Shown piece after piece: positions 24,078 through 39,458 of a stretch of 64,000 nucleotides of DNA (the first letter of the stretch is position 1; each line of letters begins with the position of its first letter). Source of the stretch: an uncultured candidate division Zixibacteria bacterium (GTDB lineage Bacteria; Zixibacteria; MSB-5A5; RBG-16-43-9); NCBI GenBank assembly GCA_963713865.1, contig OY970208.1, positions 640,001 through 704,000 on the forward strand, given 5' to 3'. The notes under the pieces were generated by a model, which worked only from the letters and a program-made list of their open reading frames with translations, had not been told where the DNA came from and did no database searches. A program made the position numbers and the translations under genes.

Positions 24078-25970
24078 TTAAGCAGGTGTATCTTTAGAAA
24101 ATACACCGCTTTTGGAAATAAACTGTTTCAGATAGACCATAAGAACGGCAATATCTCCTGGAGATACTCCTGAGATCCTCGATGCCTGTCCGATAGATCT
24201 GGGTTTTATTCTCATTAATTTTTCTTTTGCCTCCCTTTTAAAACCTTTGAGATTGGTATAATCGAACTCATCCGGGATGACCATATTCTCTAACTTCTTG
24301 TATTTCTCTATCTCCTTTAGTTCCCTTTGAATATAACCGTCATATTTTATTTCTATCTCCACTTTTTCTTTTACGATTTCCGGGAGTTCCTGAGGAACCT
24401 GGTCAATCTTAGCTAAATCTTCATAAGTTATCTCTGGCATTTTCAGAGCATAGGCTAAAGAGACCCTTTTCCCGTTTTTCTCTTCTTCTAAGAACTTGCC
24501 AAATGAGTTTAAAGGTACAAAAACCTGCTTCAATCTTTCCTTTTCCTCTTCAATTATTTTCTTATTTTCTTTAAATTCCTTGTATGCCTCATCTGAAATC
24601 AGATTATATTTATGACCATAATTTATAAGTCTATCATCCGCATTATCTTCTCTTAAAATTAATCTGTGCTCCGCCCTGGAAGTGAACATTCTGTAAGGCT
24701 CAGAAGTTCCTTTGGTAACCAGATCATCAATCAAAACACCGATATACGCTTGACTCCGATCTAAGATAAATGGCTTCTCTTTTCTTAATTTAAGAACAGC
24801 ATTTATCCCTGCAATAATCCCCTGTGCACCTGCTTCTTCATACCCTGAGGTTCCATTTATCTGGCCGGCAAAGAAAAGGTTCTCAACTAATTTCGTCTCC
24901 AAATTTGGCTTGAGCTGAGTTGGAGAGAAGAAATCATACTCAATCGCATATCCGGGTCTGGTCATCTCCACCTTTTCCAAACCGTGGACTGTTCTTAAAG
25001 CTTTTAGCTGAACATCTTCAGGCAAAGATGTGGCAAATCCATTAACATAATACTCTGTAGTATTATCACCTTCCGGCTCTAAGAAAAGCTGATGCCTGAC
25101 CTTTTCTTTAAATTTCACCACTTTATCTTCAATTGAAGGGCAATATCTGGGACCTACCCCTTTTATTACACCGCTAAAAAGAGGTGAGCGGTCCAGGTTC
25201 TTTAAAATGAATTTATGCGTAAGTTCATTTGTATAAGTCAGATAACAGGGATAATCCTTATGCTCTAAGCTTTTTGTTCTCATGGAGAAAGGTTTGATAT
25301 TATTATCCCCTAACTGAGGAATAGTTTTGGAGAAATCAACTGTTTTACCGTCAATTCTCGGAGGGGTTCCGGTCTTAAGTCTGCCAATCTCAAAGCCAAT
25401 CTCCTTAAGTTTATCTGAAACTTTTAAAGAAGGGAATTCACCAGCCCTTCCGGCAGGGAAGTTTACTAACCCAATATGAATTAACCCATTAAGAAAAGTC
25501 CCTGCAGTTAATATGACCGCATCTCCAAAATAAATAGTCCCAACTGATGATAAAACACCCCTAACTTTATTATTCTCTATAATAATCTCCTCAATATTCC
25601 CCTGTTTTAAAACCAGATTCCTTTGATTTTCTAAGGAGTTCCTCATAGCCATCTTATAAGCCACCCTATCACACTGAGCCCTTGAGGACCAGACCGCTGG
25701 ACCTTTTTTCTTGTTCAGGGTCTTGAACTGGATATAGGTTTTGTCTGTTACATACCCCATTTCTCCGCCAAGGGCATCGATCTCCCGGACTAAATGCCCC
25801 TTTGCCTGCCCTCCAATAGCAGGATTACAGGACATCTGGGCAATAGTCTCTTTATTCATAGTCAAAAGCAAAGTCTTACACCCCATCCGGGCAGATGCTA
25901 AAGCGGCCTCACACCCCGCATGCCCTGCGCCGATGACTATAACTTCAAATCTTTCTTCGTATTCAATCAT
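24078..25970 (-). CDS. mnmG: tRNA modification enzyme MnmG (GidA)
   Basis: 'GAGHAGCEAA', 'MSCNPAIGG', 'GPRYCPSIEDK', 'AGQINGTSGYEEA'. Confidence 0.98.
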   Translation of the reverse strand: MIEYEERFEVIVIGAGHAGCEAALASARMGCKTLLLTMNKETIAQMSCNPAIGGQAKGHLVREIDALGGEMGYVTDKTYIQFKTLNKKKGPAVWSSRAQCDRVAYKMAMRNSLENQRNLVLKQGNIEEIIIENNKVRGVLSSVGTIYFGDAVILTAGTFLNGLIHIGLVNFPAGRAGEFPSLKVSDKLKEIGFEIGRLKTGTPPRIDGKTVDFSKTIPQLGDNNIKPFSMRTKSLEHKDYPCYLTYTNELTHKFILKNLDRSPLFSGVIKGVGPRYCPSIEDKVVKFKEKVRHQLFLEPEGDNTTEYYVNGFATSLPEDVQLKALRTVHGLEKVEMTRPGYAIEYDFFSPTQLKPNLETKLVENLFFAGQINGTSGYEEAGAQGIIAGINAVLKLRKEKPFILDRSQAYIGVLIDDLVTKGTSEPYRMFTSRAEHRLILREDNADDRLINYGHKYNLISDEAYKEFKENKKIIEEEKERLKQVFVPLNSFGKFLEEEKNGKRVSLAYALKMPEITYEDLAKIDQVPQELPEIVKEKVEIEIKYDGYIQRELKEIEKYKKLENMVIPDEFDYTNLKGFKREAKEKLMRIKPRSIGQASRISGVSPGDIAVLMVYLKQFISKSGVFSKDTPA

Positions 25971-25998: not shown

Positions 25999-26017
25999 TA
26001 TTGTCAAGGGAATAATT

Positions 26018-26053
26018 ACCTAACAAACAATTAAATAATCATACTTGTTGGGT
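26018..26053 (-). other. Minimal attC-like palindrome
   Basis: Minus strand: ACCCAAC-22 nt-GTTAGGT within a ttacc(c/t)aacaa inverted repeat. Confidence 0.5.
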
Positions 26054-26072
26054 AACTTTGAATGAACAAGTC

Positions 26073-26195
26073 TTATAACTCATCCAGGCAGATGCAAAAC
26101 CGCTTAGCGCCAGCGATACCCTGCTGGCAAATGAGGCGGCAATTGACAATCAGGTTTATCCTCTTGCTGGCGTCCGGCTGATGCGCTGGTTGGGC
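26073..26195 (-). other. attC site (degenerate right arm)
   Basis: Minus strand: GCCCAAC cagcgcatcagccggacgccagc...gctggcgc...GTTATAA. Confidence 0.65.
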
Positions 26196-26381
26196 GCTTT
26201 GCAACTATCTATATGGTACTCTATTGATATGTTTATTTAGCGGACGCTAAATATTTCCCGGGTTCGTTATTTCCCATATCACTTCCACCCCCCCTTACTT
26301 TCAGAATATTCTCAAACTATATTTTTGTTTACTTTGGGCAGCTTCAATAACTCTTTACGATTTATTCTCATCTTACTTTTT

Positions 26382-26756
26382 TTACCTGTCCTTAGTTCCG
26401 GCTGCAGGAATCTTCCTCAGCTTCATGATAAGGGATAAAATACCCAGTCCTATTAGCAGAGCGATGATGCCATAAACCCACCAGGGGATGTTCCGCCCAA
26501 AGAAGATCACATAGATAAAGGGCGCTACGGTAGCGCATAGAAAGATTGCGGTCCAGAGTATGACTTTTTTCCAGAGCTTTTTGGTGAGGGATTGAATGGT
26601 GCGAAATAATGAATAGTAGAATACCGGCGCACAAACCAGGTAAATAATCAGGAATACAACCGGATTGACACCATAATCATCACGAGCCATCTGTAATAGT
26701 TCCTCTATCTTTGATATTACATAATCTAACATCCTCTGATATCTCCATTCATTCAA
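26382..26756 (-). CDS. Cassette gene: small 3-TM membrane protein
   Basis: Three hydrophobic segments; bounded by GTTGGGT and GCCCAAC. Confidence 0.7.
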   Translation of the reverse strand: MNEWRYQRMLDYVISKIEELLQMARDDYGVNPVVFLIIYLVCAPVFYYSLFRTIQSLTKKLWKKVILWTAIFLCATVAPFIYVIFFGRNIPWWVYGIIALLIGLGILSLIMKLRKIPAAGTKDR

Positions 26757-26773
26757 TAATACAAGTGTTTAGC

Positions 26774-26831
26774 ACCCAACTGACCCGCTTCACCTACCCG
26801 AAGGGTGGTCGGATGCAACCACTTGTTGGGC
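26774..26831 (-). other. attC site (58 bp)
   Basis: Minus strand: GCCCAAC aagtggttgcatccgaccacccttcgggtaggtgaagcgggtca GTTGGGT. Confidence 0.8.
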
Positions 26832-26875
26832 ATCGGCAAGACATCACATCTATCCTGATTCGTCTCAAAGTCTAA

Positions 26876-27052
26876 TCAGCCTAACTTCTCGACAATAAAA
26901 AGAAAGTCCACCCGATGCGCCCAGGGAAACCCGAGCGTAACGTTCGGGAATATTGAGATGACTTCACCCTCCAGGCCGTTCAGGAATTGCTCTAATTTGT
27001 TCTGGTCGCTTGTCATCCTGATATCGAACCGGTGCACCCTGTATTTCATCAT
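26876..27052 (-). CDS. Small hypothetical protein, 58 aa (MMKYRVHRFDIRMTSDQNKLEQFLNGLEGEVISIFPNV...)
   Basis: Hand-translated; SD AAGGAG; below the ORF-track cutoff. Confidence 0.7.
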   Translation of the reverse strand: MMKYRVHRFDIRMTSDQNKLEQFLNGLEGEVISIFPNVTLGFPWAHRVDFLFIVEKLG

Positions 27053-27100
27053 CCTGACTCCTTTTTAAATAATTTACTATCTGTTTATACTACTACCAAG

Positions 27101-27631
27101 TTATGTACCTAACGAGATGCGCTGTATTGTTTTCACTGTATCATTTTCATAATTCGCCACGTCGAGTATCGCAATGCGTCCTGCTATCGCAAACTCCTCC
27201 TTGTTCCAACTTTCAGCCATTTCGATGCACTTTAGCGGGTCTTTTGAGTTCCCTATTCCCATATGCGGAACAAAGTTGGCAAAGAGCGCACGATGTGGAA
27301 ATAGCTTATCAGCGTATAGTTTGTCGTGGAGCTTTACGATTTTGCTGTACCCTTCATCTGGCACCAGAAAAGTGTGATAATTATCGTTGAAGGAATCTTT
27401 ATTGAGAACAGCACAGCGCAGGCAGAACTCAAATGGTCGAACTCCTTGCACTTGCTTCACGATTTCCGAGATAAAAGGTTTGGCTTCCCAACCTTTACGT
27501 ATAGGAAATACAAGCGCAAAATGTGGCTCGACCACATGGTAATATAACTCGTCATTACGTTTTCGGAATTCCTGTATCCGCTCATAATCGCTTTTTTTAA
27601 TTTCTGGATACGCAAGCACTAATAGTGCCAT
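27101..27631 (-). CDS. Cassette gene: 2H phosphoesterase (2'-5' RNA ligase family)
   Basis: Two His motifs 'PHFAL' and 'FVPHMGIG' about 85 aa apart; stop lies within ACATAAC. Confidence 0.7.
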   Translation of the reverse strand: MALLVLAYPEIKKSDYERIQEFRKRNDELYYHVVEPHFALVFPIRKGWEAKPFISEIVKQVQGVRPFEFCLRCAVLNKDSFNDNYHTFLVPDEGYSKIVKLHDKLYADKLFPHRALFANFVPHMGIGNSKDPLKCIEMAESWNKEEFAIAGRIAILDVANYENDTVKTIQRISLGT

Positions 27632-27684
27632 AGCTATTACTCCCCATTATGAAAGTTGATTTGAAAACTTTCTTGCATTTCGCT

Positions 27685-27704
27685 GCCTAACGCCATTGTT
27701 GGCC
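27685..27704 (-). other. Collapsed attC (R'' and R' 6 nt apart)
   Basis: Minus strand: GGCCAAC aatggc GTTAGGC. Confidence 0.55.
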
Positions 27705-27845
27705 ACTTTTCTTTTCACGGCTTTCTTGATAAATCGAGCCTCTTTTTCTCCCTCTTCATTCCGAATCTGGATCCTGTGGACCGGAAGGAGCCAGAGGTGC
27801 TCCTCCATCGTCTCAAACCAGTCTGGCATGTTTCGGTTCCTATAT

Positions 27846-27935
27846 GGTCAACTATGCGGATGAACCGCTCCGGTGAGACCGTCCGCGCTTTATACGGGTC
27901 GGCCGAAACCGGTTGGTAGGTAAAAACCGTTAAAT
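27846..27935 (-). other. attC site (degenerate)
   Basis: Minus strand: ATTTAAC...ccggtttcggccgacccg / cggacggtctcaccgg...GTTGACC, just after the 27941 stop. Confidence 0.6.
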
Positions 27936-27940
27936 GGACA

Positions 27941-28279
27941 TCAATTTTCTGATTTGGAACGTCTCCCAAACCAATAACCCAATAAGGGACCAACTAAGCT
28001 CACCATTACTTCAGTATTGATGAAATTAAAAATGCGCAAGGAGACAATTCCGGCAAAAATTATTAAGGCAAATAAATATGCGGCCCATAAAGATTGAATA
28101 CGATACGAATGATTCCTGGGTACGTTACTGGAATGAGCCTCTATAAAGGTCTTAATAGAAGTTCGAATTTCCTTACTATTCAGAAGGTCAGCGATAGCTA
28201 ACCAAGCTTCATCAGAAGGAGGAATTTCTTCATTAGGTTCTTTTTCAATTGGTTCTTGTTTCTCATCATCTTTGTTCAT
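27941..28279 (-). CDS. Cassette gene: hypothetical protein with two C-terminal TM helices
   Basis: SD GGAGG; preceded by GTTAGGC. Confidence 0.75.
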   Translation of the reverse strand: MNKDDEKQEPIEKEPNEEIPPSDEAWLAIADLLNSKEIRTSIKTFIEAHSSNVPRNHSYRIQSLWAAYLFALIIFAGIVSLRIFNFINTEVMVSLVGPLLGYWFGRRSKSEN

Positions 28280-28310
28280 ATCGAATCTCCTCCAAGTTTT
28301 TTTTATAGAG

Positions 28311-28377
28311 GCCTAACATGGGTTTATCTATACTAATTAAATTGCGATCGTTGGCTTTCTCAACCATATAAACCTCC
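28311..28377 (-). repeat. attI-like site, copy 1
   Basis: Minus strand: gcaatttaattagtatAGATAAAcccatGTTAGGC; homologous to 29849-29915 and 32258-32327. Confidence 0.7.
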
Positions 28378-28391
28378 TTTATTTGTATCTT

Positions 28392-28459
28392 CTATTTCCC
28401 TATACAAGACTCCGAAAAAATCTTGTCCAGGATATCTTCAGTACAACTTTCCCTAAATC
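28392..28459 (-). repeat. Diverged copy of the mnmE 3' end (33701-33770)
   Basis: About 62/70 identity including the stop codon (TAG vs TAA), two 1-nt deletions. Confidence 0.9.
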
Positions 28460-28539
28460 TGCAAGAGCCGAGCCGTTTTACGTTGTTATGTGATGAAACC
28501 GGTAGTTTTTCTTTATTCATAAAACCTATAAGCTCTAAT
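28456..28539 (-). repeat. Constant array-terminal segment (copy of 29931-30015)
   Basis: ~84-bp near-identical repeat; minus strand (G/A)TTAGAGcttataggttttatgaat...gcagatt. Confidence 0.9.
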
Positions 28540-28624
28540 GCAGAGGTAAGCGGCGGGCGAGTTATAGTCTTCCAGAAAAATCAAACCATGTTCAACGCCC
28601 GTCCGCTTGACCGAATTGTTCGGC
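28533..28624 (-). other. attC site with mutated core (ATTAGAG)
   Basis: Minus strand: GCCGAAC aattcggtcaagcggacgggcg...cgcccgccgcttacctctgc ATTAGAG. Confidence 0.85.
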
Positions 28625-28633
28625 AATTTCCGT

Positions 28634-29077
28634 CTATCTCCATAGGTAGCCTGCCTCCTTTGCTTTGGCTACCAAGCTGGAATACGACTCAACCTCAATA
28701 AATGGCGCCCACTGACCATACTTCTTTTCTAATGAACCATCTTGGTGTTTAACGATGTGCCAATAAGGTAACCAAACTGATGAAGAACCCTTATCAATTG
28801 ACTCGACGATAACCAAGAATGGATAAAATTCGACCTTGCCACCATTTCCGTTCGACCAACTTACGATCTGATCAGGGAGAAAGGCTGTCAAAACCCTACA
28901 GTGATGCTGACCAGCACCCAAACCAAAATTGAAAGTAAGTTCAATGCTCATGGGCAACGCGCACGATTCGCATGCGTGCCCTTGGCCATTGGCATGATCA
29001 TGGAGAGCAACAAATAGATTTGCTATCCAGGTTTTCTTATGACACGCCCCACAGACATAATATCTCTGCGTTGCCAT
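28634..29077 (-). CDS. Cassette gene: Zn-ribbon (CxxC...CxxC) hypothetical protein
   Basis: 'CGAC', 'CESC'; bounded by GTTGGGC and GCCGAAC. Confidence 0.75.
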   Translation of the reverse strand: MATQRYYVCGACHKKTWIANLFVALHDHANGQGHACESCALPMSIELTFNFGLGAGQHHCRVLTAFLPDQIVSWSNGNGGKVEFYPFLVIVESIDKGSSSVWLPYWHIVKHQDGSLEKKYGQWAPFIEVESYSSLVAKAKEAGYLWR

Positions 29078-29099
29078 CTTGGATTCCTACTTGTGTGTG

Positions 29100-29186
29100 G
29101 CCCAACGCGGTGTTAATCTGCGAGGTGAACTTTTAGCCCAATTTGAAGTCCTCCAGTACAGAGTTAGCTTGAACACGTTGTTAGCC
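29100..29186 (-). other. attC site
   Basis: Minus strand: GGCTAAC (contains the stop codon) aacgtgttcaagct...cagattaacaccgc GTTGGGC. Confidence 0.75.
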
Positions 29187-29828
29187 ATTTTTTATTCTGT
29201 TAAGCAATTCTTTACAATATGAGGTTTTATATGATATTAAACCCAATTTTCCCCTTAATTTGTTTGCAGAAATATTTCGTTGTTTTGATAATATTTCTTT
29301 TGCCTGAATTTCATAATAACTCTCTTTTAATAATCCAAAATGCCATAAAAGCCTAATAAGGGATAAAACATCATCCTTCGGGTCTATTTTTGGATCTTTG
29401 CCGATATATAGGATTAAGCCGTCAAGTACTTTAGATTCCAATAACTCGCCTTCAATAACAGTTACATCTTTTGGAATTTTATTTTTAATTCGATCAGCAA
29501 TATTAATTCCAAAAATTGTCTGAATAACTTTTTTGTCTTTCCAACGTTCTTTTGCCAATTTTCTTGATTCTTTAATTTGTTTTAAAATTCTATCTAGCGA
29601 TTTATTATGAAATGTACTGTTAATATTGGATTTGCATTCACAAATATTAACCTTTTTCGGATCTTCCGGATCAATTGCGATTAAATCAAAATCAGTAGTA
29701 GCTGTAGATGGACTATATTTTGTTATTTTCTTTCGGTCATATCTAATGGGCAAATTTTCAATTACAAAAGCACCATTCAATCTTTCCATCCATAATCTAC
29801 AAATTCGCTCAAACGGATGATAGGCCAT
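29181..29828 (-). CDS. Cassette gene: PD-(D/E)XK nuclease-like protein
   Basis: 'FE', 'DFDLIA', 'ICECKS' motif order. Confidence 0.7.
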   Translation of the reverse strand: MAYHPFERICRLWMERLNGAFVIENLPIRYDRKKITKYSPSTATTDFDLIAIDPEDPKKVNICECKSNINSTFHNKSLDRILKQIKESRKLAKERWKDKKVIQTIFGINIADRIKNKIPKDVTVIEGELLESKVLDGLILYIGKDPKIDPKDDVLSLIRLLWHFGLLKESYYEIQAKEILSKQRNISANKLRGKLGLISYKTSYCKELLNRIKNG

Positions 29829-29848
29829 TTTTAATATCCTCTTTTCAT

Positions 29849-29915
29849 AGCCAACATAGGTTTATCTGTTCTAATTAAATTGCGACCACTGTCTTTCTTG
29901 ACCTTATAAGCCTCC
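29849..29915 (-). repeat. attI-like site, copy 2
   Basis: Minus strand: gcaatttaattagaacAGATAAAcctatGTTGGCT. Confidence 0.7.
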
Positions 29916-30008
29916 CACAAACTTACTCACAATCTGCAAGAGCCGAGCCGTTTATACGCTGTTATGTGATGAAATCGGTAGTTTTTCTTCATTCATAAAA
30001 CCTATAAG

Positions 30009-30132
30009 CTCTAACGGGATTTTCACCGATCAAACCGCAAAGAGATACTTCCCTGAAAATTGTGATGGACCGAACTCTCAAAATTAGAAAAAGTAGTGCG
30101 CGGTTCGATCAGCGTGCAAAATTGGGTTATGG
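30009..30132 (-). other. attC site (124 bp)
   Basis: Minus strand: CCATAAC ccaattttgcacgctgatcgaaccgc...gcggtttgatcggtgaaaatccc GTTAGAG. Confidence 0.85.
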
Positions 30133-30140
30133 CTATTAAC

Positions 30141-30956
30141 CTACATATCTTTTTTCTCTATATTATTCCCATGATAATGAGTTATTGATAGAACTTGACG
30201 CAATACACTTAATGGTTCATTAGGAATAGGCATTGGTATTAGAATTTTATCAATAGGATACTGAAAAGGTGATAATATTTTACTAACCATAGTGAGAAGA
30301 CCAATGATATCTGGTTCTACAGGGTGAAAGGGTATAGCTAATAATTTCCAATGATACGTATCACGTTTTGCTCGAATGAACGCTGATCCATATGCATTAA
30401 CAAAGGGTAATAATACAGTCATTAATTGTTTCTCAACAATTTTCTTACTTTTTATAGCTCCTTGAAGTGAATCAAATAGATCTATAAAGTTATCTACGGG
30501 AATCGATAATATGCCCAGTCTCTTACCCCGAAATTCATCGATATGAGAACGCCAAGGTATAAGTTGCTCTTGATACTGGGAACCTAGCTGCAAAGCTTCA
30601 ATCATTGGATATATCATTTGTGCAGAATTAAATTTTTGGTTAAGAAATATAAATTCATCAAATGATATTCCAGATAAGGAAAACATAACTGAACAATACG
30701 GTGATTCCGCAAGTCTATAAGCATGTCCAGCTATTTCAAAAGATTCTTGTGATCCTGTTAGGTCAGAGAGCAGTAGAGAGTGAGCAGCAGAACGCCTGAA
30801 ATATGTGGCAGCAATAAATGCTAAAGAAATGCGATTTTGAATGGTTTCTTCTTTCTTGGCATGTGTAAAATAGGTATGTCCAATCTCACTATAAACATTA
30901 CCAAGACGCATAACACGTTCCGAGTCAAGCTCAGCTAGAAATTCATATTTAATCAT
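30141..30956 (-). CDS. Cassette gene: helical hypothetical protein, partner of the ADP-ribosyltransferase
   Basis: 19 bp downstream of the ART gene in the same cassette; SD GAGG; Ala-rich TPR/SNAP-like helices. Confidence 0.75.
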   Translation of the reverse strand: MIKYEFLAELDSERVMRLGNVYSEIGHTYFTHAKKEETIQNRISLAFIAATYFRRSAAHSLLLSDLTGSQESFEIAGHAYRLAESPYCSVMFSLSGISFDEFIFLNQKFNSAQMIYPMIEALQLGSQYQEQLIPWRSHIDEFRGKRLGILSIPVDNFIDLFDSLQGAIKSKKIVEKQLMTVLLPFVNAYGSAFIRAKRDTYHWKLLAIPFHPVEPDIIGLLTMVSKILSPFQYPIDKILIPMPIPNEPLSVLRQVLSITHYHGNNIEKKDM

Positions 30957-30975
30957 TGATGTTTCCTCGTTGAAA

Positions 30976-31620
30976 TCATATAATCACATCACGGATATTA
31001 GATATTTCTTCTGGAGAAATGTACTTACGAGTGTTAAAAACTTCACTCGTTGGTCTAGGTATTTGCCTTGATCTGAACGAAGTAAGAGTAGAATTAATTT
31101 CATAATAACAGTATTTCTCGATTTGTGTTGGTGGTATATTTATCTTAGCTGTGACTTCACCTTCAGGTTGAAAAGGGCTGAAACCTGTGTATATATTTAA
31201 CTCTCTAACTTCTTCAGAAAAAGGTCGGTGTGCTATGCTTTGTTTACCAAGAACGAATAAATAACAATGAAACAAATATCCATCATGCGACCACCCGTCT
31301 GTAGCGAATTCAAGTGCAATGAGCCAAGCAGGATGCCGAATATTAATTCCTGCTGCTGGATTTCTCTCAATAGAACCTGCGGTTGTTGAAATGAATGGAG
31401 TATGTTTGTAGAAAGGTTCTCCACCTTCCTGTGGGTCGGGGTCCGTAAATCTGTTCTGATGCCAAAATAAATTACGATCTGTAAGACGTACATATACTTC
31501 TACTTCGGGCATATTATGTACTTTATTCCACCAGTTACATAGAATACCCACATTCATTATATTATCAGCTTCATTTTTCGAAATGCCTCCAATCCCTCTT
31601 ATTACTTTTTGAATAATCAT
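30976..31620 (-). CDS. Cassette gene: R-S-E clade (cholera/pertussis-toxin-like) ADP-ribosyltransferase
   Basis: 'VIRG', 'PFISTT', 'PEGEVTAKINIPPTQI' parallel CtxA 'LYRA', 'YVSTS', 'EQEVSALGGIPYSQI'. Confidence 0.75.
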   Translation of the reverse strand: MIIQKVIRGIGGISKNEADNIMNVGILCNWWNKVHNMPEVEVYVRLTDRNLFWHQNRFTDPDPQEGGEPFYKHTPFISTTAGSIERNPAAGINIRHPAWLIALEFATDGWSHDGYLFHCYLFVLGKQSIAHRPFSEEVRELNIYTGFSPFQPEGEVTAKINIPPTQIEKYCYYEINSTLTSFRSRQIPRPTSEVFNTRKYISPEEISNIRDVII

Positions 31621-31642
31621 TTTTAATTTTCCCTTAATTATG

Positions 31643-31712
31643 CCATAACGTTACACTCCACCGGCTCGTAGCCCACCGCGGGCTTCGCGTGCGGTGGGAG
31701 CGATAGTTGGAC
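31643..31712 (-). other. attC site (70 bp)
   Basis: Minus strand: GTCCAAC tatcgctcccaccgcacgcgaagccc...gggctacgagccggtggagtgtaac GTTATGG. Confidence 0.88.
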
Positions 31713-31713
31713 A

Positions 31714-32250
31714 TTAAAATAGTTCTTTCAAACTGTCTGCAAAGGCCTTGAGTTTCAACATTGTTTCAGGATTGTCTCTTACCTCTCGTGGGAGAAAGTC
31801 TTCTTTATGATCCCGCAGGTATTCCCACACGAAATCGCGGATATGAAACGGAAGGCTGAGGATATTCCCTGATCCTTGGGTGATAATTCCCTTGTTCAAG
31901 AGGGAATTAGCCGTTTGGTTGATTGCGGTTGCACTGAGTGTCTGGACATTGTGGAACAAGCAGTAGGCGATCCATTTGTATTCCGACAGATCAAGAGTTC
32001 GCAGGCGTTTGATTATGACAGCCTTTTGCCTTGCTTTTCCTCGGATTTCAGAAAACCAATTGGAGACACATATGGTGGCTGAGAAGATTAGTCCGAGCCA
32101 ACAAAATCCGAGATAATCGAGCTTGATCTTTTCCAGTCCGAGTGACTTCGATGTGTCGGTCGGCAAAAGGATTACGAAAAGACAGACGAAGAATACTCCC
32201 CAAGCGTACTTCGCTACTGCCTCAAGTATTGTTGATATAGCTTCAATCAT
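31714..32250 (-). CDS. Cassette gene: superinfection exclusion protein B (SieB)-like membrane protein
   Basis: Two TM helices then 'L.TL...E..I..C', 'SL..KGII', 'I.DFVWEYL'. Confidence 0.6.
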   Translation of the reverse strand: MIEAISTILEAVAKYAWGVFFVCLFVILLPTDTSKSLGLEKIKLDYLGFCWLGLIFSATICVSNWFSEIRGKARQKAVIIKRLRTLDLSEYKWIAYCLFHNVQTLSATAINQTANSLLNKGIITQGSGNILSLPFHIRDFVWEYLRDHKEDFLPREVRDNPETMLKLKAFADSLKELF

Positions 32251-32257
32251 ATCTTAC

Positions 32258-32327
32258 GTCCAACATAGTTTTATCTACACTAATTAAATTGCTTTCACTA
32301 TCTTTCTTGACCATATAAACCCCCTCC
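32258..32327 (-). repeat. attI-like site, copy 3
   Basis: Minus strand: gcaatttaattagtgtAGATAAAactatGTTGGAC. Confidence 0.7.
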
Positions 32328-32407
32328 AAACCTCCCCACATTCTTAATGACAGACTGTACTTCTCGCCATAGGTCACGCTTGTGAACAAGAAGAAATTCG
32401 AGGCCAT

Positions 32408-32572
32408 TTAGATGGGAATGTATTTTTCAAAAATATCAATCTCGTCATAATCAGGATTAAAGTCCCTCATTAAAGTTTTTTTCCTATTATCTGCTAAATG
32501 TCGAGTAAAAAATATTTCAGGCTCCTGAATAAAACCTCTTTTGACAAAGGTTAAAATCCATATTTTTTTCAT
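32408..32572 (-). CDS. Small hypothetical protein, 54 aa (MKKIWILTFVKRGFIQEPEIFF...DEIDIFEKYIPI)
   Basis: Hand-translated; starts 2 nt after the upstream stop; SD AGGAG. Confidence 0.6.
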   Translation of the reverse strand: MKKIWILTFVKRGFIQEPEIFFTRHLADNRKKTLMRDFNPDYDEIDIFEKYIPI

Positions 32573-32574
32573 TC

Positions 32575-33480
32575 TTACACTCCTTTCATTCTCTTAAACC
32601 AGCTATACACATCTCTATATTCCATAAAGTTGCAAATATCGGTCAATCCACTCGTCCTAAAGGTGGGACGACCGATCTGCCTTAGGAACATAGACCGCCT
32701 TGTATCATTTGAGACAATGTTGAATTTTAGTTTCAAATTAGGTTCAATAAGATGCATATCATTAAATCTGAGTAACCCAGAATATATCGGCGTTGAATAT
32801 TCAACTTCGAAAATTGCGGTTAGCTCACTAGAACCTCTCTGAATCCATATAACATCAACTTCCCTGATAATATTGTCAACCTTTTCATATCGCACTGGCA
32901 AATCACTTCTACAAGCGTATTCTTCTGCCAAGCTCCAATCCAATTTATTTCTATCATTTAATGGTATCCAGATGTCATGACCTTTTATTGTCCCTATTGA
33001 GCCGATCAAAGTTTGAATTTGAGAATGACCGAGGTCCGGCATAACCACAATCTTATTTTTATCGATCAGATTATCTAAAATATGCCATCCATAAAAACCC
33101 TCTATATTGAACCGACCAGCATTGGCAATATAAAGCTCGGTTTCCTCACCAGGATAAATCTGAACCTTGTATTGACCATCAGAAGCTGGCGTCAGAGAGT
33201 TGAATATTTCTTCAAAATCTGTAAAAGGTACAAAAACAGGCTCTGTTTGAGTATCCCATAAAAAGCAAATAACAGAATTAACTCCTTCCAATTGTTTTAT
33301 ATCATCTCGCCGTAATCCAAAAAATGTCTTGTCTCTATCGTGAACTTTTGAATATCTTATATATATTCGTGCTAAGCCATCGCCTATCTCAAATAAAGAG
33401 AGACTGTTCGGTAATCGTTTTGGTTTACCATATTTACTTCTTAATTGTTCTAGAAAAGCTTTCTTAAATGGATTTGCCAT
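32575..33480 (-). CDS. Restriction-endonuclease-like PD-(D/E)XK protein
   Basis: 'HSQIQ..I..IG..KG.DIWIP.ND', 'VDVIW', 'FEVEYSTPIYSGLLRFND'. Confidence 0.72.
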   Translation of the reverse strand: MANPFKKAFLEQLRSKYGKPKRLPNSLSLFEIGDGLARIYIRYSKVHDRDKTFFGLRRDDIKQLEGVNSVICFLWDTQTEPVFVPFTDFEEIFNSLTPASDGQYKVQIYPGEETELYIANAGRFNIEGFYGWHILDNLIDKNKIVVMPDLGHSQIQTLIGSIGTIKGHDIWIPLNDRNKLDWSLAEEYACRSDLPVRYEKVDNIIREVDVIWIQRGSSELTAIFEVEYSTPIYSGLLRFNDMHLIEPNLKLKFNIVSNDTRRSMFLRQIGRPTFRTSGLTDICNFMEYRDVYSWFKRMKGV

Positions 33481-33487
33481 AGGATTG

Positions 33488-33606
33488 TTATAACGTAATT
33501 TCAGTTTATCATCGCACCTGCCCCACGGTGATTGTGACGATTAGTTGCAATGACTCATCCGGTATGGTCTTCAGTAGTTCTATACAATCACCGGGATAAA
33601 CAACAA
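33488..33606 (-). other. Degenerate attC-like palindrome ending in GTTATAA
   Basis: gtttatc...cggtgattgt / acaatcaccg.gataaac arms; core 7 nt upstream of the ATG. Confidence 0.45.
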
Positions 33607-33661
33607 TTTGCTCTGACAGTGCAAATTTCTGAACTATTTTTCTCTTGTCGAACATAATACT

Positions 33662-33690
33662 ATGATAATAAAATGTAGGTTTAGAGTCAA
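33662..33690 (-). promoter_or_regulatory. Putative sigma70 promoter driving the cassette array
   Basis: TTGACT-17 nt-TATCAT right after the mnmE stop. Confidence 0.65.
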
Positions 33691-33700
33691 CGGATTCATT

Positions 33701-35137
33701 TTATTTCCCTATACAAAACTCCGAAAAAATCTTATTCAGTATATCTTCAGTTACAACCTTCCCTACAATCTCACCGATTGAATCTAAAGCAACTCTCAAA
33801 TCTAAAGCCACAAATTCAAAGCTCATATTTTTCAAAAGGCTATCCTTAGCCAGAGATAGAGATTGAACTGCTTTTGCTAATGCTTCTTTATGTCTTAAAT
33901 TACTAATTAATCCGCCTAAGGCGGACTGGTCAAGTCCTTTTTTGGAAAAGAAGACCTCAGAGGCAATTTTATCTTTTAATTCCTCTATACCCCAGCCTTT
34001 CAAAGCTGAGATATTATGAATTTTTTTAGATATTTCTTTTTGCTCTAATCCTTCAGAGAGCTTCTTTTCTATTTCTTTGACTTTTTCATCTGAGACTAAA
34101 TCCACCTTATTAATCGCAATTATATAACTAAAATCAGCTAATTCTTTTTCTAAGTCTTTATCCTCTTTTGTTATACCGGTCTCCGCATCAACAACAAAAA
34201 CTATGAAGTCAGCTTTACTTATCTCAATCTTTGTCTTTTTAATCCCTTCGATCTCGATCTTATCTTTAGAGACCCTGAACCCCGCTGTATCGGTCAACCT
34301 CACCGGCAAACCTTTGAAATTAGTATATTCGCTGATCACATCCCTGGTAGTCCCTGGAATTGGGGTAACAATAGCCCGCTCCTCTTTTAAGAATGCGTTT
34401 AAAAGGGAAGATTTGCCAACATTGGTCTTTCCCACAATCACAACCCTTAATCCTTCTCTCAAAATCTTCCCCTCTTCGTAGGTCTCGATCAAACTTTTTA
34501 TCTGGGATTCAATCTTCTCTATCTTTTCTAAAACAAAAGACCTGTCCAGATCCTCAATCTCTTCCTCTGGAAAATCTATCCTTGCTTCCAATTCAGCTAA
34601 AATAGAAATCAACTCTTCCTGGATGAGATTTAGTTTTTCAGATAATTCACCCTGAAGATGTTTCAGGCTGTGTTTCAGGCTCAAATCTGTCTTCGCCTTT
34701 ATGATCTCAGCCACTGCTTCAGCCTGGGCTAAATCGATCCGTCCGTTTAAAAAAGCCCTGAGTGTAAATTCCCCAGGATTGGCAAGTCTTGCCCCACACT
34801 TTATTATCTCCTCAAGCACCCTGCAAAGAACAAGAGGGCTTCCATGACAGCTTATCTCGACCAGGTCTTCTTTGGTATAGCTTTTAGGTGCCCTGAAGAC
34901 TGTAAGATAAACTTCGTCTATCACCTGCCTGGAATCCGGAGAAATTAGCTTTCCATAATTTGCTTTATGGCTTTCTGCTTTGCTAAGTGATATTTCCCCT
35001 TTGAAGATTTTATCAGCAATAAAAATAGCTTTTTTGCCGCTAATTCTTACTATACCGATTCCGCTTTCTCCAAAGGGAGTAGAAATAGCTGTTATGGTAT
35101 CTTCTGTGTCAGAGAGATACCCCAAAGATTTCTCCAT
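33701..35137 (-). CDS. mnmE: tRNA modification GTPase MnmE
   Basis: 'DTITAISTP.G', 'GKTNVGKSS', 'GTTRD', 'DTAG', 'FCIGK'. Confidence 0.98.
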   Translation of the reverse strand: MEKSLGYLSDTEDTITAISTPFGESGIGIVRISGKKAIFIADKIFKGEISLSKAESHKANYGKLISPDSRQVIDEVYLTVFRAPKSYTKEDLVEISCHGSPLVLCRVLEEIIKCGARLANPGEFTLRAFLNGRIDLAQAEAVAEIIKAKTDLSLKHSLKHLQGELSEKLNLIQEELISILAELEARIDFPEEEIEDLDRSFVLEKIEKIESQIKSLIETYEEGKILREGLRVVIVGKTNVGKSSLLNAFLKEERAIVTPIPGTTRDVISEYTNFKGLPVRLTDTAGFRVSKDKIEIEGIKKTKIEISKADFIVFVVDAETGITKEDKDLEKELADFSYIIAINKVDLVSDEKVKEIEKKLSEGLEQKEISKKIHNISALKGWGIEELKDKIASEVFFSKKGLDQSALGGLISNLRHKEALAKAVQSLSLAKDSLLKNMSFEFVALDLRVALDSIGEIVGKVVTEDILNKIFSEFCIGK

Positions 35138-38090: not shown

Positions 38091-39458
38091 ATGCCTTTAA
38101 ACAACGAAAAGGTCTGGGAAGAATGTCTTGACATTCTCAGCCAGAAAATAAAAAAACAGAGTTTTCATACCTGGCTCAGACCCACCAAGGGGGTCTCCTG
38201 TGAGGAGAAGACGTTGAAGGTGGCAGTACCTAACAAATTTGTGGCAGAGTGGCTGGAAGAGCATTACCTGGAACAAATTCATGAGGCCATAGATAAAGTA
38301 ACCCGGGAGAGTCTGCCTCTTTCCTTTTTGATCTCAACGGAGATGGGCGAGACCTTAACCAGAATAAACTTTGAGGAGACAGAAAGGGAGGGAGCCGTTC
38401 TTTTAAAAAAATCTTTATTAAGTCAGAAAAAAAATTGCCAGTTCAATCCCAGATATACCTTTGAGACCTTTGTGGTGGGAGAGAGTAATCAGTTTGCCCA
38501 TGCAGCTGCTTTAGCTGTAGCGGAAGCACCGGGAAAAACCAAGTTTAACCCTTTCTTTATTTACGGGGGGGTGGGATTGGGGAAAACCCATCTGGCTCAG
38601 GCTATCGGGCATTATGTGAACGAAGAATATGTAGAGCTAAACGTGCTCTATGCCACCAGCGAGAAGTTCACCAACGACTTCATAAATTCAATAACCAATA
38701 ATACCTCTCAGGAGTTCGTGAACTTTTATCGAAATGTCGATCTTCTCCTTTTAGACGATATTCAGTTTTTGGCTGGCAAGGAGAGCACGCAGGTTCAATT
38801 CTTCCATACCTTCAATGCCCTTTACCAGAGCGGCAAGCAGATAGTCTTAACTTCAGACCGTCCGCCTAAGGAGATCAAAGGATTAGAGGAAAGGCTCTTA
38901 TCCAGGATGCAATGGGGTCTGGTTACAGATATCCAGCCGCCGGATTTGGAAACCAGGATCGCCATCCTTCAGAAAAAAAGCGAATCGGATGGTATAACCA
39001 TCCCCCAGGAAATAGCAGTATTCATTGCAGACAATGTAACTTCTAATATCCGGGAATTGGAAGGTGCACTAATCCGTCTTTTAGCTTATTCCTCCTTAAA
39101 TGGCAAGGAACTGAGCGTTGATTTATCCAAAGAGGTTTTAAAAGATGTTATTAAAAACGGCTCTAAGGAGATAACCATAAGCGATATTCGAAAAAAAGTG
39201 GCAGAAAGTTTTAACCTTTCCGAGGAAAACCTTTGTTCCAAGAAAAAAACACAAGAGATTGCCATAGCCCGGCAGGTAGCAATGTATTTAGCCCGGAGCC
39301 TGACCAAAGCCTCCCTGAAAACCATCGGCTTGGAATTCGGGGGAAGAGATCATTCCACAGTAATTCATGCCTATAATCTGATCGTGGAATATTTAAAAAA
39401 AGATCTGGATTTTAAATTAAAGGTCGATGGGATTATCAACTTTTTGTATTCATCCTAA
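38091..39458 (+). CDS. dnaA: Replication initiator DnaA
   Basis: 'GGVGLGKTHL', 'DDIQFL', 'NIRELEGAL', 'GGRDHSTV'. Confidence 0.99.
   Translation: MPLNNEKVWEECLDILSQKIKKQSFHTWLRPTKGVSCEEKTLKVAVPNKFVAEWLEEHYLEQIHEAIDKVTRESLPLSFLISTEMGETLTRINFEETEREGAVLLKKSLLSQKKNCQFNPRYTFETFVVGESNQFAHAAALAVAEAPGKTKFNPFFIYGGVGLGKTHLAQAIGHYVNEEYVELNVLYATSEKFTNDFINSITNNTSQEFVNFYRNVDLLLLDDIQFLAGKESTQVQFFHTFNALYQSGKQIVLTSDRPPKEIKGLEERLLSRMQWGLVTDIQPPDLETRIAILQKKSESDGITIPQEIAVFIADNVTSNIRELEGALIRLLAYSSLNGKELSVDLSKEVLKDVIKNGSKEITISDIRKKVAESFNLSEENLCSKKKTQEIAIARQVAMYLARSLTKASLKTIGLEFGGRDHSTVIHAYNLIVEYLKKDLDFKLKVDGIINFLYSS

Follow-up and report, generated by a model that had tools for sequence, protein, structure and literature searches.

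An integron is usually pictured as a single integrase with a single attI and a single array. The 7.7-kb interval between mnmE and mnmG in G000, the genome under study (an uncultured sediment bacterium), contains an array of attC-bounded cassettes that has no integrase and includes a repeated element, here called E, in three copies. This raises the question of what E is and how it came to be present three times. We analyzed the interval within the window, that is, the whole stretch of 64,000 nucleotides (positions 640001–704000), and window coordinates are used unless stated otherwise. Our results indicate that the interval, whose genes are on the minus strand (Table 1), is probably a CALIN (an integron-type cassette array without integrase) that holds three copies of the attI-type site of this lineage. 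A previous sequence-only reading placed the locus next to oriC. This is reasonable, as dnaA is located at 38445–38930 and the sign change of the GC skew is broad (350–800 kb).

Both anchors of the interval are conserved. The mnmE gene is 79–94% identical in six relatives, and mnmG is 80–94% identical over its full length in six relatives, to which G002 adds a C-terminal fragment. No Pfam match was found for the three ORFs inserted between mnmE and the first copy of E. The region 33707–33534 matches G003 at 87%, and the full gene in G003 is a PF01555 gene beside a BglII-type endonuclease.

Table 1. Features of the mnmE–mnmG interval (window coordinates). The attC, attI-type and cassette assignments are predictions.
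Feature	Position	Strand	Details
mnmE	33701–35137	−	478-aa ORF; conserved left anchor
Insertion between mnmE and copy C	32408–33655	−	Three ORFs, no attC
DNA methyltransferase N-terminal stump	33509–33655	−	48 aa; inside the insertion
301-aa ORF	32575–33480	−	Inside the insertion
54-aa ORF	32408–32572	−	Inside the insertion
Element copy C (attI-type site)	32264–32327	−	Crossover G|TT 32264|32263; nhmmer E-value 8.7 × 10−10
Cassette 1	31649–32263	−	SieB-like 178-aa ORF 31714–32250 (PF14163, E-value 2.2 × 10−11); attC 31640–31715
Cassette 2	30015–31648	−	214-aa and 271-aa ORFs; long attC 30009–30132
Unit X(B)	29855–30014	−	160 nt; G|TT at both borders
Parts of X(B)		−	Leader P 29968–30014; attC 5′ half 29931–29967; short mnmE-derived stub; copy B
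Element copy B	29855–29918	−	End of X(B); nhmmer E-value 2.8 × 10−13
Cassette 3	29106–29854	−	215-aa ORF 29181–29828; attC 29097–29189
Cassette 4	28539–29105	−	Cys-rich 147-aa ORF 28634–29077; attC 28530–28627
Unit X(A)	28317–28538	−	222 nt; G|TT at both borders
Parts of X(A)		−	Leader P 28492–28538; attC 5′ half 28456–28491; displaced mnmE 3′ end 28390–28460; copy A
Element copy A	28317–28380	−	End of X(A); nhmmer E-value 1.1 × 10−12
Cassette 5	27846–28316	−	112-aa ORF 27941–28279; putative attC 27846–27935
Older cassettes, mnmG side	26099–27845	−	Common to relatives; contain the next five features
60-aa ORF and 176-aa 2′-5′ RNA ligase-like ORF (PF13563)	27101–27829	−	
58-aa ORF	26876–27052	−	
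attC	26771–26834	−	
124-aa membrane ORF	26382–26756	−	
attC-like site	26099–26174	−	
mnmG	24078–25970	−	Right anchor

Our repeat comparison of the window confirmed the ~70-bp repeat that had been noticed three times, and located it at 28313–28397, 29851–29935 and 32260–32344. E is a non-palindromic element of 60–70 nt, and the outer copies are 71% and 80% identical to the middle copy across 85 nt. On the minus strand, an AGATAAA-type box, 5 nt and G|TT close every repeat, and an ORF starts 8–40 nt further on, as the earlier description of an AGATAAA-5 nt-GTT end directly before a cassette gene had stated. The crossover points of the copies are 28317|28316, 29855|29854 and 32264|32263. No hairpin potential was found in the window copies (DNA fold z = −1.06, +0.66 and +0.61). 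E thus appears to have the features of an attI site, namely a non-palindromic sequence with a conserved left side, a G|TT crossover and the first cassette on the right.

Related WOR-3 genomes and metagenomes also contain E; in ~130 copies, the conserved part reaches exactly as far as G|TT. Two sets were used to define the boundary, one of 55 copies (relatives and species genomes) and one of 83 copies (metagenome contigs). In both, conservation climbs toward the 3′ end and halts at CCTATG|TT, and the next letters are mostly AGNC or GGGC. The exact reverse complement of the eight junction bases was found 100–3000 nt downstream in 9/48 copies (control 68/2206, P = 1.4 × 10−5), and the independent metagenome set gave the same junction rule (17/66 against 152/4968, P = 1 × 10−11). 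The exact 8-mer is present in just 26 of the 114 tested copies, the control rate being 3%. Textbook attC-type hairpins begin at these inverse-core places downstream of E. Outside the core, E resembled the classical attI of G196 no more closely than shuffled sequences did.

The absence of a tyrosine recombinase from the window, which the sequence-only reading had reported, was borne out. A whole-genome scan with TIGR02249 gave three places, all outside 640001–704000, and tblastn of the window returned nothing under an E-value of 0.5. The scan detected a 97-aa C-terminal intI remnant at 753844–754137 (109.5 bits; cut-off 265), ~80 kb from the array, and two Xer-type genes. A search of the genome for intI had been recommended; ours found only this remnant and no intact gene. 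No intI of the TIGR02249 type with the IntI-specific segment adjoins the array, as it would in a complete integron.

In this clade, intI, attI and the cassettes run in the same direction, and a related site is located 165–175 nt behind the stop codon at nine intI or intI-remnant loci. At the G000 remnant, the next cassette has the inverse core CGCCCAAC, which agrees with the junction G|TTGGGCG at 8/8 positions, and the attC of this cassette has an E-value of 6.9 × 10−5 with R2, an attC covariance model made solely from other genomes. On contig L107, E itself follows an intI remnant that scores 104.7 bits, in the place where the nine clade loci have attI. This positional homology, the sharp G|TT boundary and the inverse cores matching the junction all support the earlier view that the repeats are attI-like. 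Judged from these sequence features, E is probably a real attI-type site. E was within ~1.5 kb of intI or Xer at 0/34 loci of the phylum, and no copy was found with a full-length intI next to it; in the set of 80 metagenome loci, the L107 remnant and an Xer-like gene at L176 are the only such genes near E.

We searched the 64 kb for attC sites on both strands with R2. It gave nine matches at E-value ≤ 10, and the best five all coincide with predicted attCs of the minus strand in the region 26.1–31.7 kb, which upholds the proposal that attI platforms are stacked in one integrase-less array. The scores are individually weak: one match alone has an E-value < 0.01, two predicted attCs were missed, and the fold z-scores range from −0.8 to −3.0. 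The sites nevertheless resemble the imperfect hairpins (RYYYAAC...GTTRRRY) of attC cassettes, and cassettes 1 and 2 are perfectly self-consistent. Cassette 1 starts with TTGGAC and has the inverse core GTCCAAC (7/7; R2 E-value 0.67; fold z = −1.59). Cassette 2 starts with TTATGGC and has the inverse core GCCATAAC (8/8); its attC, a long imperfect stem (fold z = −0.83), was missed by R2, and its ORFs gave no Pfam match. For cassette 3, the R2 E-value is 1.1, the inverse core fits the junction at 5/7, and fold z is −1.32. The attC of cassette 4 is the top window match of both models (R1 E-value 0.13, R2 E-value 0.0044; fold z = −3.01; inverse core 6/7). The putative attC of cassette 5 (hairpin z = −1.41) was missed by R2, and its inverse core fits the junction poorly.

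The older cassettes on the mnmG side gave R2 E-values of 0.083 and 0.71. They show 76–94% identity with the equivalent interval of G001, G003, G004 and G006. The interval is polymorphic among relatives, and the cassettes after each window copy of E were not found in the equivalent interval of seven relatives. That the cassettes nearest mnmG are common to relatives is what would be expected if insertion occurs at each E. Altogether, five attC model matches and two structural candidates are found in 5.7 kb, and the nearest intI remnant is the distant one described above.

The sequence-only reading also described two sub-arrays that end in the same ~84-bp flank. Two copies of this flank do exist (28476–28538 vs 29952–30014, 94%; 28445–28478 vs 29920–29953, 88%). 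However, it is not a simple right flank but consists of a 47-nt cassette leader (P), also present in relatives, and a truncated attC of which the 5′ half is left. Both flanks are part of larger units, X(A) (28538–28317) and X(B) (30014–29855). These units begin with TTAGAGC directly behind an attC, and their last base is the G of copy A and copy B, respectively. In X(A), a displaced mnmE 3′ end precedes copy A (28390–28442 vs 33699–33751, 91%; in a longer alignment, 28460–28390 vs 33771–33699, 89%). Because the X units start after the attC crossover and end at their own G|TT, with attI instead of attC at the end, they are predicted to be attI-type cassettes. From their borders, we regard the inner copies of E as belonging to non-coding attI-type cassettes of 160 and 222 nt. 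Thus, the idea of stacked modules of attI, cassettes and right flank holds in that several attI-type sites are present in one array, but the inner copies are carried by small G|TT-bounded units.

The left join of the X units looks illegitimate, because it lies inside the attC loop with a 3-nt microhomology. In the public run X4, one contig has the joint 28538->29853 (side 27; letters between the joint ends not known), and another fuses the flank with an mnmE 3′ fragment. The first is a single sighting, in one contig, of the ‘empty’ junction of element and flank that the earlier reading had postulated, and it is a hint only.

E is found directly 3′ of the mnmE stop codon in G006 and G008, and run X2 shows the same adjacency (joint 32325->33699, 11 letters between). 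The place straight after the mnmE stop is probably the native one in this family, from which E would have seeded the array. E would act as a double-strand-type site (L-box, 4–5 nt, G|TTRRRY), where an integron integrase would insert a circular cassette by joining its folded attC between G and TT. Copy C heads the array, and copies B and A are located at the 3′ ends of the X units, which may have been copied by attC × E recombination following one illegitimate join. We infer that IntI acts on E and that it came in trans, as the sequence-only reading had proposed, or has since been lost.

E is not confined to the mnmE interval. It is lineage-wide and multi-locus, and it is present in several families of the uncultured phylum, also at loci unrelated to mnmE. 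Further repeat copies in the genome, for which the sequence-only reading had recommended a search, were found in G000: four at 2482699–2486451 and a weak one at 83008. At the second locus (2482699–2486451), the copies of E precede asnA, a glycosyltransferase and catalase, and R2 detected no attC behind them. The modules ahead of these copies can be aligned with L107 over the stretch from the final codons of intI to the end of E (80% mean column identity in a four-way alignment). We tentatively suggest that attI has come loose from its integrase as a multi-copy, possibly mobile docking platform, in the form of attI-type cassettes and promoter–attI modules settled behind core genes such as mnmE. 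Several capture and expression sites per genome would be served by one transient or foreign integrase, which might be called a ‘distributed integron’.

Another explanation is that E primarily serves gene expression as a leader: a site for a protein or small RNA in the 5′ untranslated region, or an operator close to the promoter. It would be carried on non-coding ‘promoter cassettes’, with recombination at its end being incidental, and its conservation would be due to regulation. This would agree with several genomes (L053, L056 and L064) in which E begins a few bases past a consensus TTGACA-17-TATAAT promoter and ends 10–40 nt ahead of a ribosome-binding site and ATG. A promoter ahead of attI, the cassette promoter Pc, is also a feature of complete integrons. 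Many copies also have GGAGG and ATG at their 5′ end, and the genes following E at the second locus look ordinary. However, the ATG is absent or its frame broken in many copies, and the genes downstream of E have no common function. No promoter-like site adjoins the three window copies; the scan found 21 sites where 23.1 were expected, without enrichment, and the sole good minus-strand match in the window is at 33690–33662, behind mnmE. RNAalifold gave 0 consensus pairs for 38 copies, so that a conserved structure with covariation, typical of structured cis-regulatory RNA, was not seen, and Rfam gave no overlapping match at E-value ≤ 5 for the window and the second locus. A leader would also account neither for the exact boundary at G|TT nor for the inverse-core matches and the site behind intI, and we consider this explanation improbable.

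SGI1-type islands target the 3′ end of trmE (mnmE). The repeats could accordingly be attL/attR scars of a non-integron element integrated in tandem at this end, with the attC cassettes as passengers. Displaced mnmE 3′ ends in the interval of G000 (~70 nt), G001 (241 nt) and G006 (37 nt), as well as the X4 contig with the fused mnmE fragment, could be read in this way. Yet such unequal lengths are unlike the fixed repeat of a site-specific integrase, and neither an integrase of its own nor a fixed-length mnmE repeat at both borders, as in mnmE/trmE genomic islands, was found here. No integrase or transposase was detected in the interval, in the 3–8 kb loci of the genome-set copies, or in 78/80 metagenome loci. 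The copies of E away from mnmE and the illegitimate-looking join in the attC loop also argue against scars, which we regard as very improbable. E may instead be a true attI, one module of which was multiplied to three copies through unequal crossing-over or tandem duplication before ordinary cassette turnover set in, and the X units would then not be mobile. Because X(A) and X(B) both join a truncated attC to an mnmE stub at the same odd place, they are likely to derive from one event, and copies B and C have an identical deletion of the mnmE stub. However, only the X units are duplicated, the attCs ahead and the cassettes behind being unrelated; both start exactly at an attC crossover point, and run X4 shows that a second population has this join too. 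Duplication is therefore somewhat unlikely, though less so than the other two alternatives.

CALIN denotes a cluster of attC sites and SALIN a single attC, both without integron integrase, and the definition of CALIN excludes attI. In contrast, a long conserved site, positionally homologous to true attI, heads each sub-array here. In sedentary chromosomal integrons of the Treponema type, intI and the cassettes are co-oriented and one attI lies beside a complete intI. The clade attI at 165–175 nt behind the intI stop, with cassettes following on the intI strand, is similar to this arrangement, whereas intI is lacking from the window and three attI-type sites lie next to mnmE. According to parts of bioRxiv 10.1101/2022.09.11.507474, chromosomal attC-bounded cassettes without nearby intI, as in CALIN and SALIN, may have been inserted by an integrase in trans. 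The attG genomic insertion sites described there are a degenerate GWT, unlike attI in sequence and structure.

By analogy, the ΔattI-type cassettes known from class 1 and 2 integrons, as presented in sections of PMC12901181, are the closest precedent of the X units. These sections describe ΔattI-type cassettes and attI1-gene-attI1 arrangements, so that internal (Δ)attI are already known, and report that IntI1 excises and inserts ΔattI-type units. In both cases, an attI copy lies within an array and forms the 3′ end of a unit starting past the attC/attI crossover; the crossover is G|TTRRRY, and the attI2 minimal core AATAAAATGTTRRRY resembles the end of E (PMC12901181, in part). Most of the ΔattI-type cassettes covered there (PMC12901181) keep only 14–18 nt of attI, whereas the X units keep the full 60–70 nt. 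The X units are, moreover, non-coding and contain a piece of a housekeeping gene. They also differ in that no integrase lies beside the array and none is intact in the genome, and in that E is found at other chromosomal loci across several families.

To our knowledge, attI sites outside class 1–5 integrons are barely defined. E would provide an attI family that is long and well conserved and belongs to an uncultured phylum. It comes with ~130 natural copies, numerous cassette junctions and candidate integrases in relatives, such as a full-length IntI in G014, and thus attI recognition by a non-proteobacterial IntI becomes directly testable. E would also suggest a concrete route by which integrase-less cassette clusters arise and keep growing, namely the copying or relocation of the docking site itself, whether or not a promoter goes with it. 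In this way, attI-type sites could multiply and spread without their enzyme.

Some cassettes in the interval and in relatives have a defence look (SieB-like, restriction-modification, TIR and Fic), which fits the view of arrays as stores of accessory genes.

Every gene between 24 and 37 kb of the window lies on the minus strand. The sequence-only reading had placed three attI-like platforms of about 70 bp between mnmE and mnmG. Our self-comparison of the window recovered these repeats as an attI-type element of 60-70 nt (E, copies A, B and C), and each copy ends in the geometry that had been noted, with an AGATAAA-type box, 5 nt and G↓TT, and an ORF right after. The shared flank was likewise recovered as an 84-nt repeat (identity 88-94%), and no tyrosine recombinase was found within the window (TIGR02249 genome scan; tblastn of the window), as the same reading had stated. 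The self-comparison also revealed something that it had not mentioned, a duplicate of the mnmE 3' end (91% identity). The cassettes behind each E had no counterpart in the mnmE-mnmG intervals of seven relatives, which were the regions searched. The best promoter-like stretch of the interval, TTGACT-17-TATCAT at 33662-33690 (minus strand), lies directly behind the mnmE stop codon and ahead of a methyltransferase stump.

Features of the mnmE-mnmG interval, listed from the mnmE side, and attC sites matched by covariance model R2
Feature	Window position	Strand	Remarks
dnaA	38445-38930
mnmE	33701-35137	minus	gene order rpmH-rnpA-yidC-mnmE
mnmE 3' end, original copy	33699-33751
Small ORFs between mnmE and mnmG		minus	7.7 kb
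Remnant restriction-modification insertion		minus	48-aa methyltransferase stump, 301-aa and 54-aa ORFs
E copy C	32260-32344	minus
Cassette 1, SieB-like		minus	start TTGGAC; attC begins GTCCAAC
Cassette 2, two ORFs		minus	start TTATGGC; attC begins GCCATAAC
Unit X(B), 160 nt		minus	47-nt leader P, attC 5' half, mnmE stub, E copy B
E copy B	29851-29935	minus
Flank	29920-30014
Cassettes 3 and 4		minus
Unit X(A), 222 nt		minus	parts as X(B), but ~70 nt of mnmE 3' end, then E copy A
E copy A	28313-28397	minus
mnmE 3' end, second copy	28390-28442
Flank	28445-28538
Cassette 5		minus
mnmG-side cassettes		minus	76-94% identity to the same interval in G001, G003, G004 and G006
mnmG	24078-25970	minus
attC	31640-31715	minus	R2 E-value 0.67
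attC	29097-29189	minus	R2 E-value 1.1
attC	28530-28627	minus	R2 E-value 0.0044
attC	26771-26834	minus	R2 E-value 0.083
attC	26099-26174	minus	R2 E-value 0.71

We then considered the distribution of E. The source genome (G000) contains seven strong copies and a weak one, all on the minus strand, and four copies at 2482699-2486451 precede asnA, a core-2/I-branching-type glycosyltransferase, a catalase and a small membrane protein. The 23-nt core of E (≤2 mismatches) was found in 10 of 41 related genomes, the source genome included, and the reversed control pattern gave 2 matches. Exact-pattern scans found the E pattern in 28 stretches of species genomes, from records mostly titled as candidate division WOR-3 or its allies, and in 82 stretches of metagenome contigs; a few matches in archaeal records are without the extended element and look like chance. 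E directly follows the mnmE stop codon in two relatives (G006 and G008), and in the public sequencing run X2, one contig connects 33699 with 32325 across 11 intervening letters. Thus, the native place of E in this family is directly behind mnmE. Two species-genome loci (L058 and L060) carry a short variant that keeps only the last ~25 nt of E. Together with an inverse copy of its own L-box located upstream, this variant makes a small hairpin and resembles a miniature attC, a hint that the right half is common to E and some attC sites in this lineage.

Several other readings of E were rejected. A structured RNA would not agree with the 38 copies compared, which yielded no consensus pair, and an Rfam search gave two chance-level matches at each locus (the window and the second locus), none of them on E. 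A leader peptide or upstream ORF is contradicted by the loss of the ATG or the frame in many copies. A transposon end does not fit either, as the sharp edge of E faces the following gene, the opposite edge is gradual and the surroundings upstream differ between copies. A promoter scan showed no enrichment, and no recombinase gene was present in the 3-8 kb loci around the E copies of relatives and species genomes.

The bases that follow G↓ in a cassette array are part of the cassette and are thus expected to complement its own inverse core. We searched for the exact reverse complement of the eight junction bases 100-3000 nt downstream of E, with the cores of other copies as the control. It was found for 9 of 48 genome copies versus 68 of 2206 controls (binomial, P = 1.4 × 10−5), and for 17 of 66 metagenome-contig copies versus 152 of 4968 controls (P = 1 × 10−11). 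With seven bases, the counts were 14 of 48 and 24 of 66, against controls of ~10-11%. Clear attC hairpins are present where the inverse cores match. Judged by these matches, the E junction obeys the integron rule.

A first attC covariance model was built from six inverse-core-matched sites. Across 43 E-bearing loci it returned 32 sites, all on the E strand except two weak reverse-strand matches in locus L050 (E-values 0.36 and 0.65). It was too narrow for the window, where it gave one match only (E-value 0.13). We rebuilt the model as R2 from those 32 sites, none of them from the window, and scanned the whole window with filters off. Nine matches were obtained at E-value ≤10, and the best five all lie on predicted attCs of the minus strand; the scan missed the predicted attCs at 30009-30132 and 27846-27935. 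The individual R2 scores are weak; jointly with the self-consistent cores, they establish an attC cluster. Attempts by fold or duplex energy were unspecific (16 sites in the region versus 7-14 in control stretches) or, in other versions, too strict, and the predicted attCs have modest minimum-free-energy z-scores, which we did not take as proof. Elsewhere in G000, a lone attC-like site (G000:C1:526593-526690; L007:6593-6690) has a 5' half resembling the truncated attC of the X units, with a small Cys-rich ORF after it.

The position of E can be compared with that of attI beside intI. A profile search of the G000 genome found no intact intI. The sole trace, at 753844-754137, is an ORF of 97 aa whose match covers the final 69 positions of TIGR02249 (109.5 bits). 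A second tyrosine recombinase, at 1580 kb, was rejected as intI; it is a frameshifted xerC between topA and hslV, split over two frames (260 aa and a tail) at G000:C1:1580032-1580900 (L003:1450-2320), by frameshift or assembly error. The relative G014 has a full IntI (340 aa, 481 bits), around which no attC array was detected. Behind nine intI genes or remnants we found a conserved same-strand site, 165-175 nt from the stop codon, ending in an ATATAAC-type box, 4-5 nt and G↓TT. At the G000 remnant, the junction G↓TTGGGCG corresponds at 8/8 bases to the inverse core CGCCCAAC of the next cassette, which has a SnoaL-like ORF (attC E-value 6.9 × 10−5). Therefore, intI, attI and cassettes are co-oriented in the G000 clade. 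The stretch G000:C1:753844-754900 (L001:1417-2470; L009:9822-9894) is a decayed integron with the IntI remnant, the clade attI ~165 nt behind and the SnoaL-like cassette.

In the metagenome contig L107, intI is cut by an insertion but keeps its C-terminus (104.7 bits), and E is located behind it at the usual attI place. The modules before E at the second locus of G000 can be aligned to L107 over the final intI codons and onward to the end of E (four-way alignment, mean column identity 80%). From this position and this alignment, E therefore descends from an intI-linked attI and shares positional homology with a true attI. E was never found beside a complete intI: 34 phylum loci are without E, and among 80 metagenome loci with E, the only recombinase neighbours are that of L107 and one Xer-like gene. 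In G196, a more distant genome with a classical divergent integron, the attI has a junction match of 9/9, and the CCTATG↓TT core is all that it has in common with E.

At the second locus (G000:C1:2481500-2486700; L006:7500-12650), three of the four E copies have a repeated ~250-330-nt module in front of them. The module includes a hairpin as well as a promoter-like inverted repeat and is homologous to the intI-to-E stretch of L107. R2 detected no attC there, and E with its promoter-like module may merely head ordinary genes. Phylum-wide, many genomes (e.g., G003 and G019) have several short C-terminal IntI fragments in open frames 48-130 aa long, a pattern suggesting that the attI-proximal end of the gene frequently stays behind or is copied, in a way similar to the mnmE end in the window.

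Internal attI copies are described in PMC12901181 as ΔattI-type cassettes of class 1 and 2 integrons, recombined by IntI1, with one attI1-gene-attI1 case among them. Integrase-less clusters (CALIN, SALIN) and attG sites have been described as well (10.1101/2022.09.11.507474). Literature listings and abstracts contained no multi-copy orphan attI, and our literature search found no reports of integrons in WOR-3. What is new is a putative full-length attI family, multi-copy and multi-locus, conserved across families, anchored behind mnmE and apart from its integrase.

The three E copies of the window raise the question of their origin. Units X(A) and X(B) share an odd join, where the sequence passes from the broken loop of an attC into mnmE sequence through a microhomology of 3 nt; this points to an illegitimate event that would have occurred once. 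A complete version of this attC is present in G001, and a related attC at 526.6 kb of G000. The two units start exactly after the crossover bases of two attCs that are unrelated to each other, and each unit ends at its own G↓TT, an arrangement that fits copying of the X units as attI-type cassettes by attC × E recombination. The main alternative is a tandem duplication followed by cassette turnover; self-comparison of the window and comparison with relatives found no further duplication around the units. A site-specific island integrase is argued against by the differing lengths of the displaced mnmE ends (37, ~70 and 241 nt).

Contigs of other populations break at the same points as the window units. 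Run X1 contains 27% of the sampled words and X2-X6 contain 5-8%, and uncovered stretches are uninformative. X3 and X4 join leader P to the next shared cassette (27844/27846 to 28492/28512), and X4 joins the flank to an mnmE 3' fragment (33762 to 29929, depth 15.7, side 57). The sequence-only reading had also predicted an empty site. One X4 contig shows this site, with E joined to P (28538 to 29853, depth 6.7, side 27, intervening letters not known), and is a hint only; the pattern of element end plus flank start gave two loose matches and no true junction in 104 sequences.

P occurs at four places in relatives and follows an attC in three of them. At the remaining place, in G001 (L034:7698-7830), P runs in frame into the start of mnmG and provides the start codon of the gene plus 10 additional N-terminal residues. 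G007 (L039) carries the mnmG 5' end a second time (61 nt, 90%), ~1.2 kb before the gene. Just upstream of mnmG in the window, positions 26016-26062 contain an AT-rich palindrome of 40 nt whose ends are of inverse-core and core type (R2 E-value only 8.7, plus strand). The palindrome is also found in G006 and G007, and a TTGACA-type promoter-like stretch comes after it.
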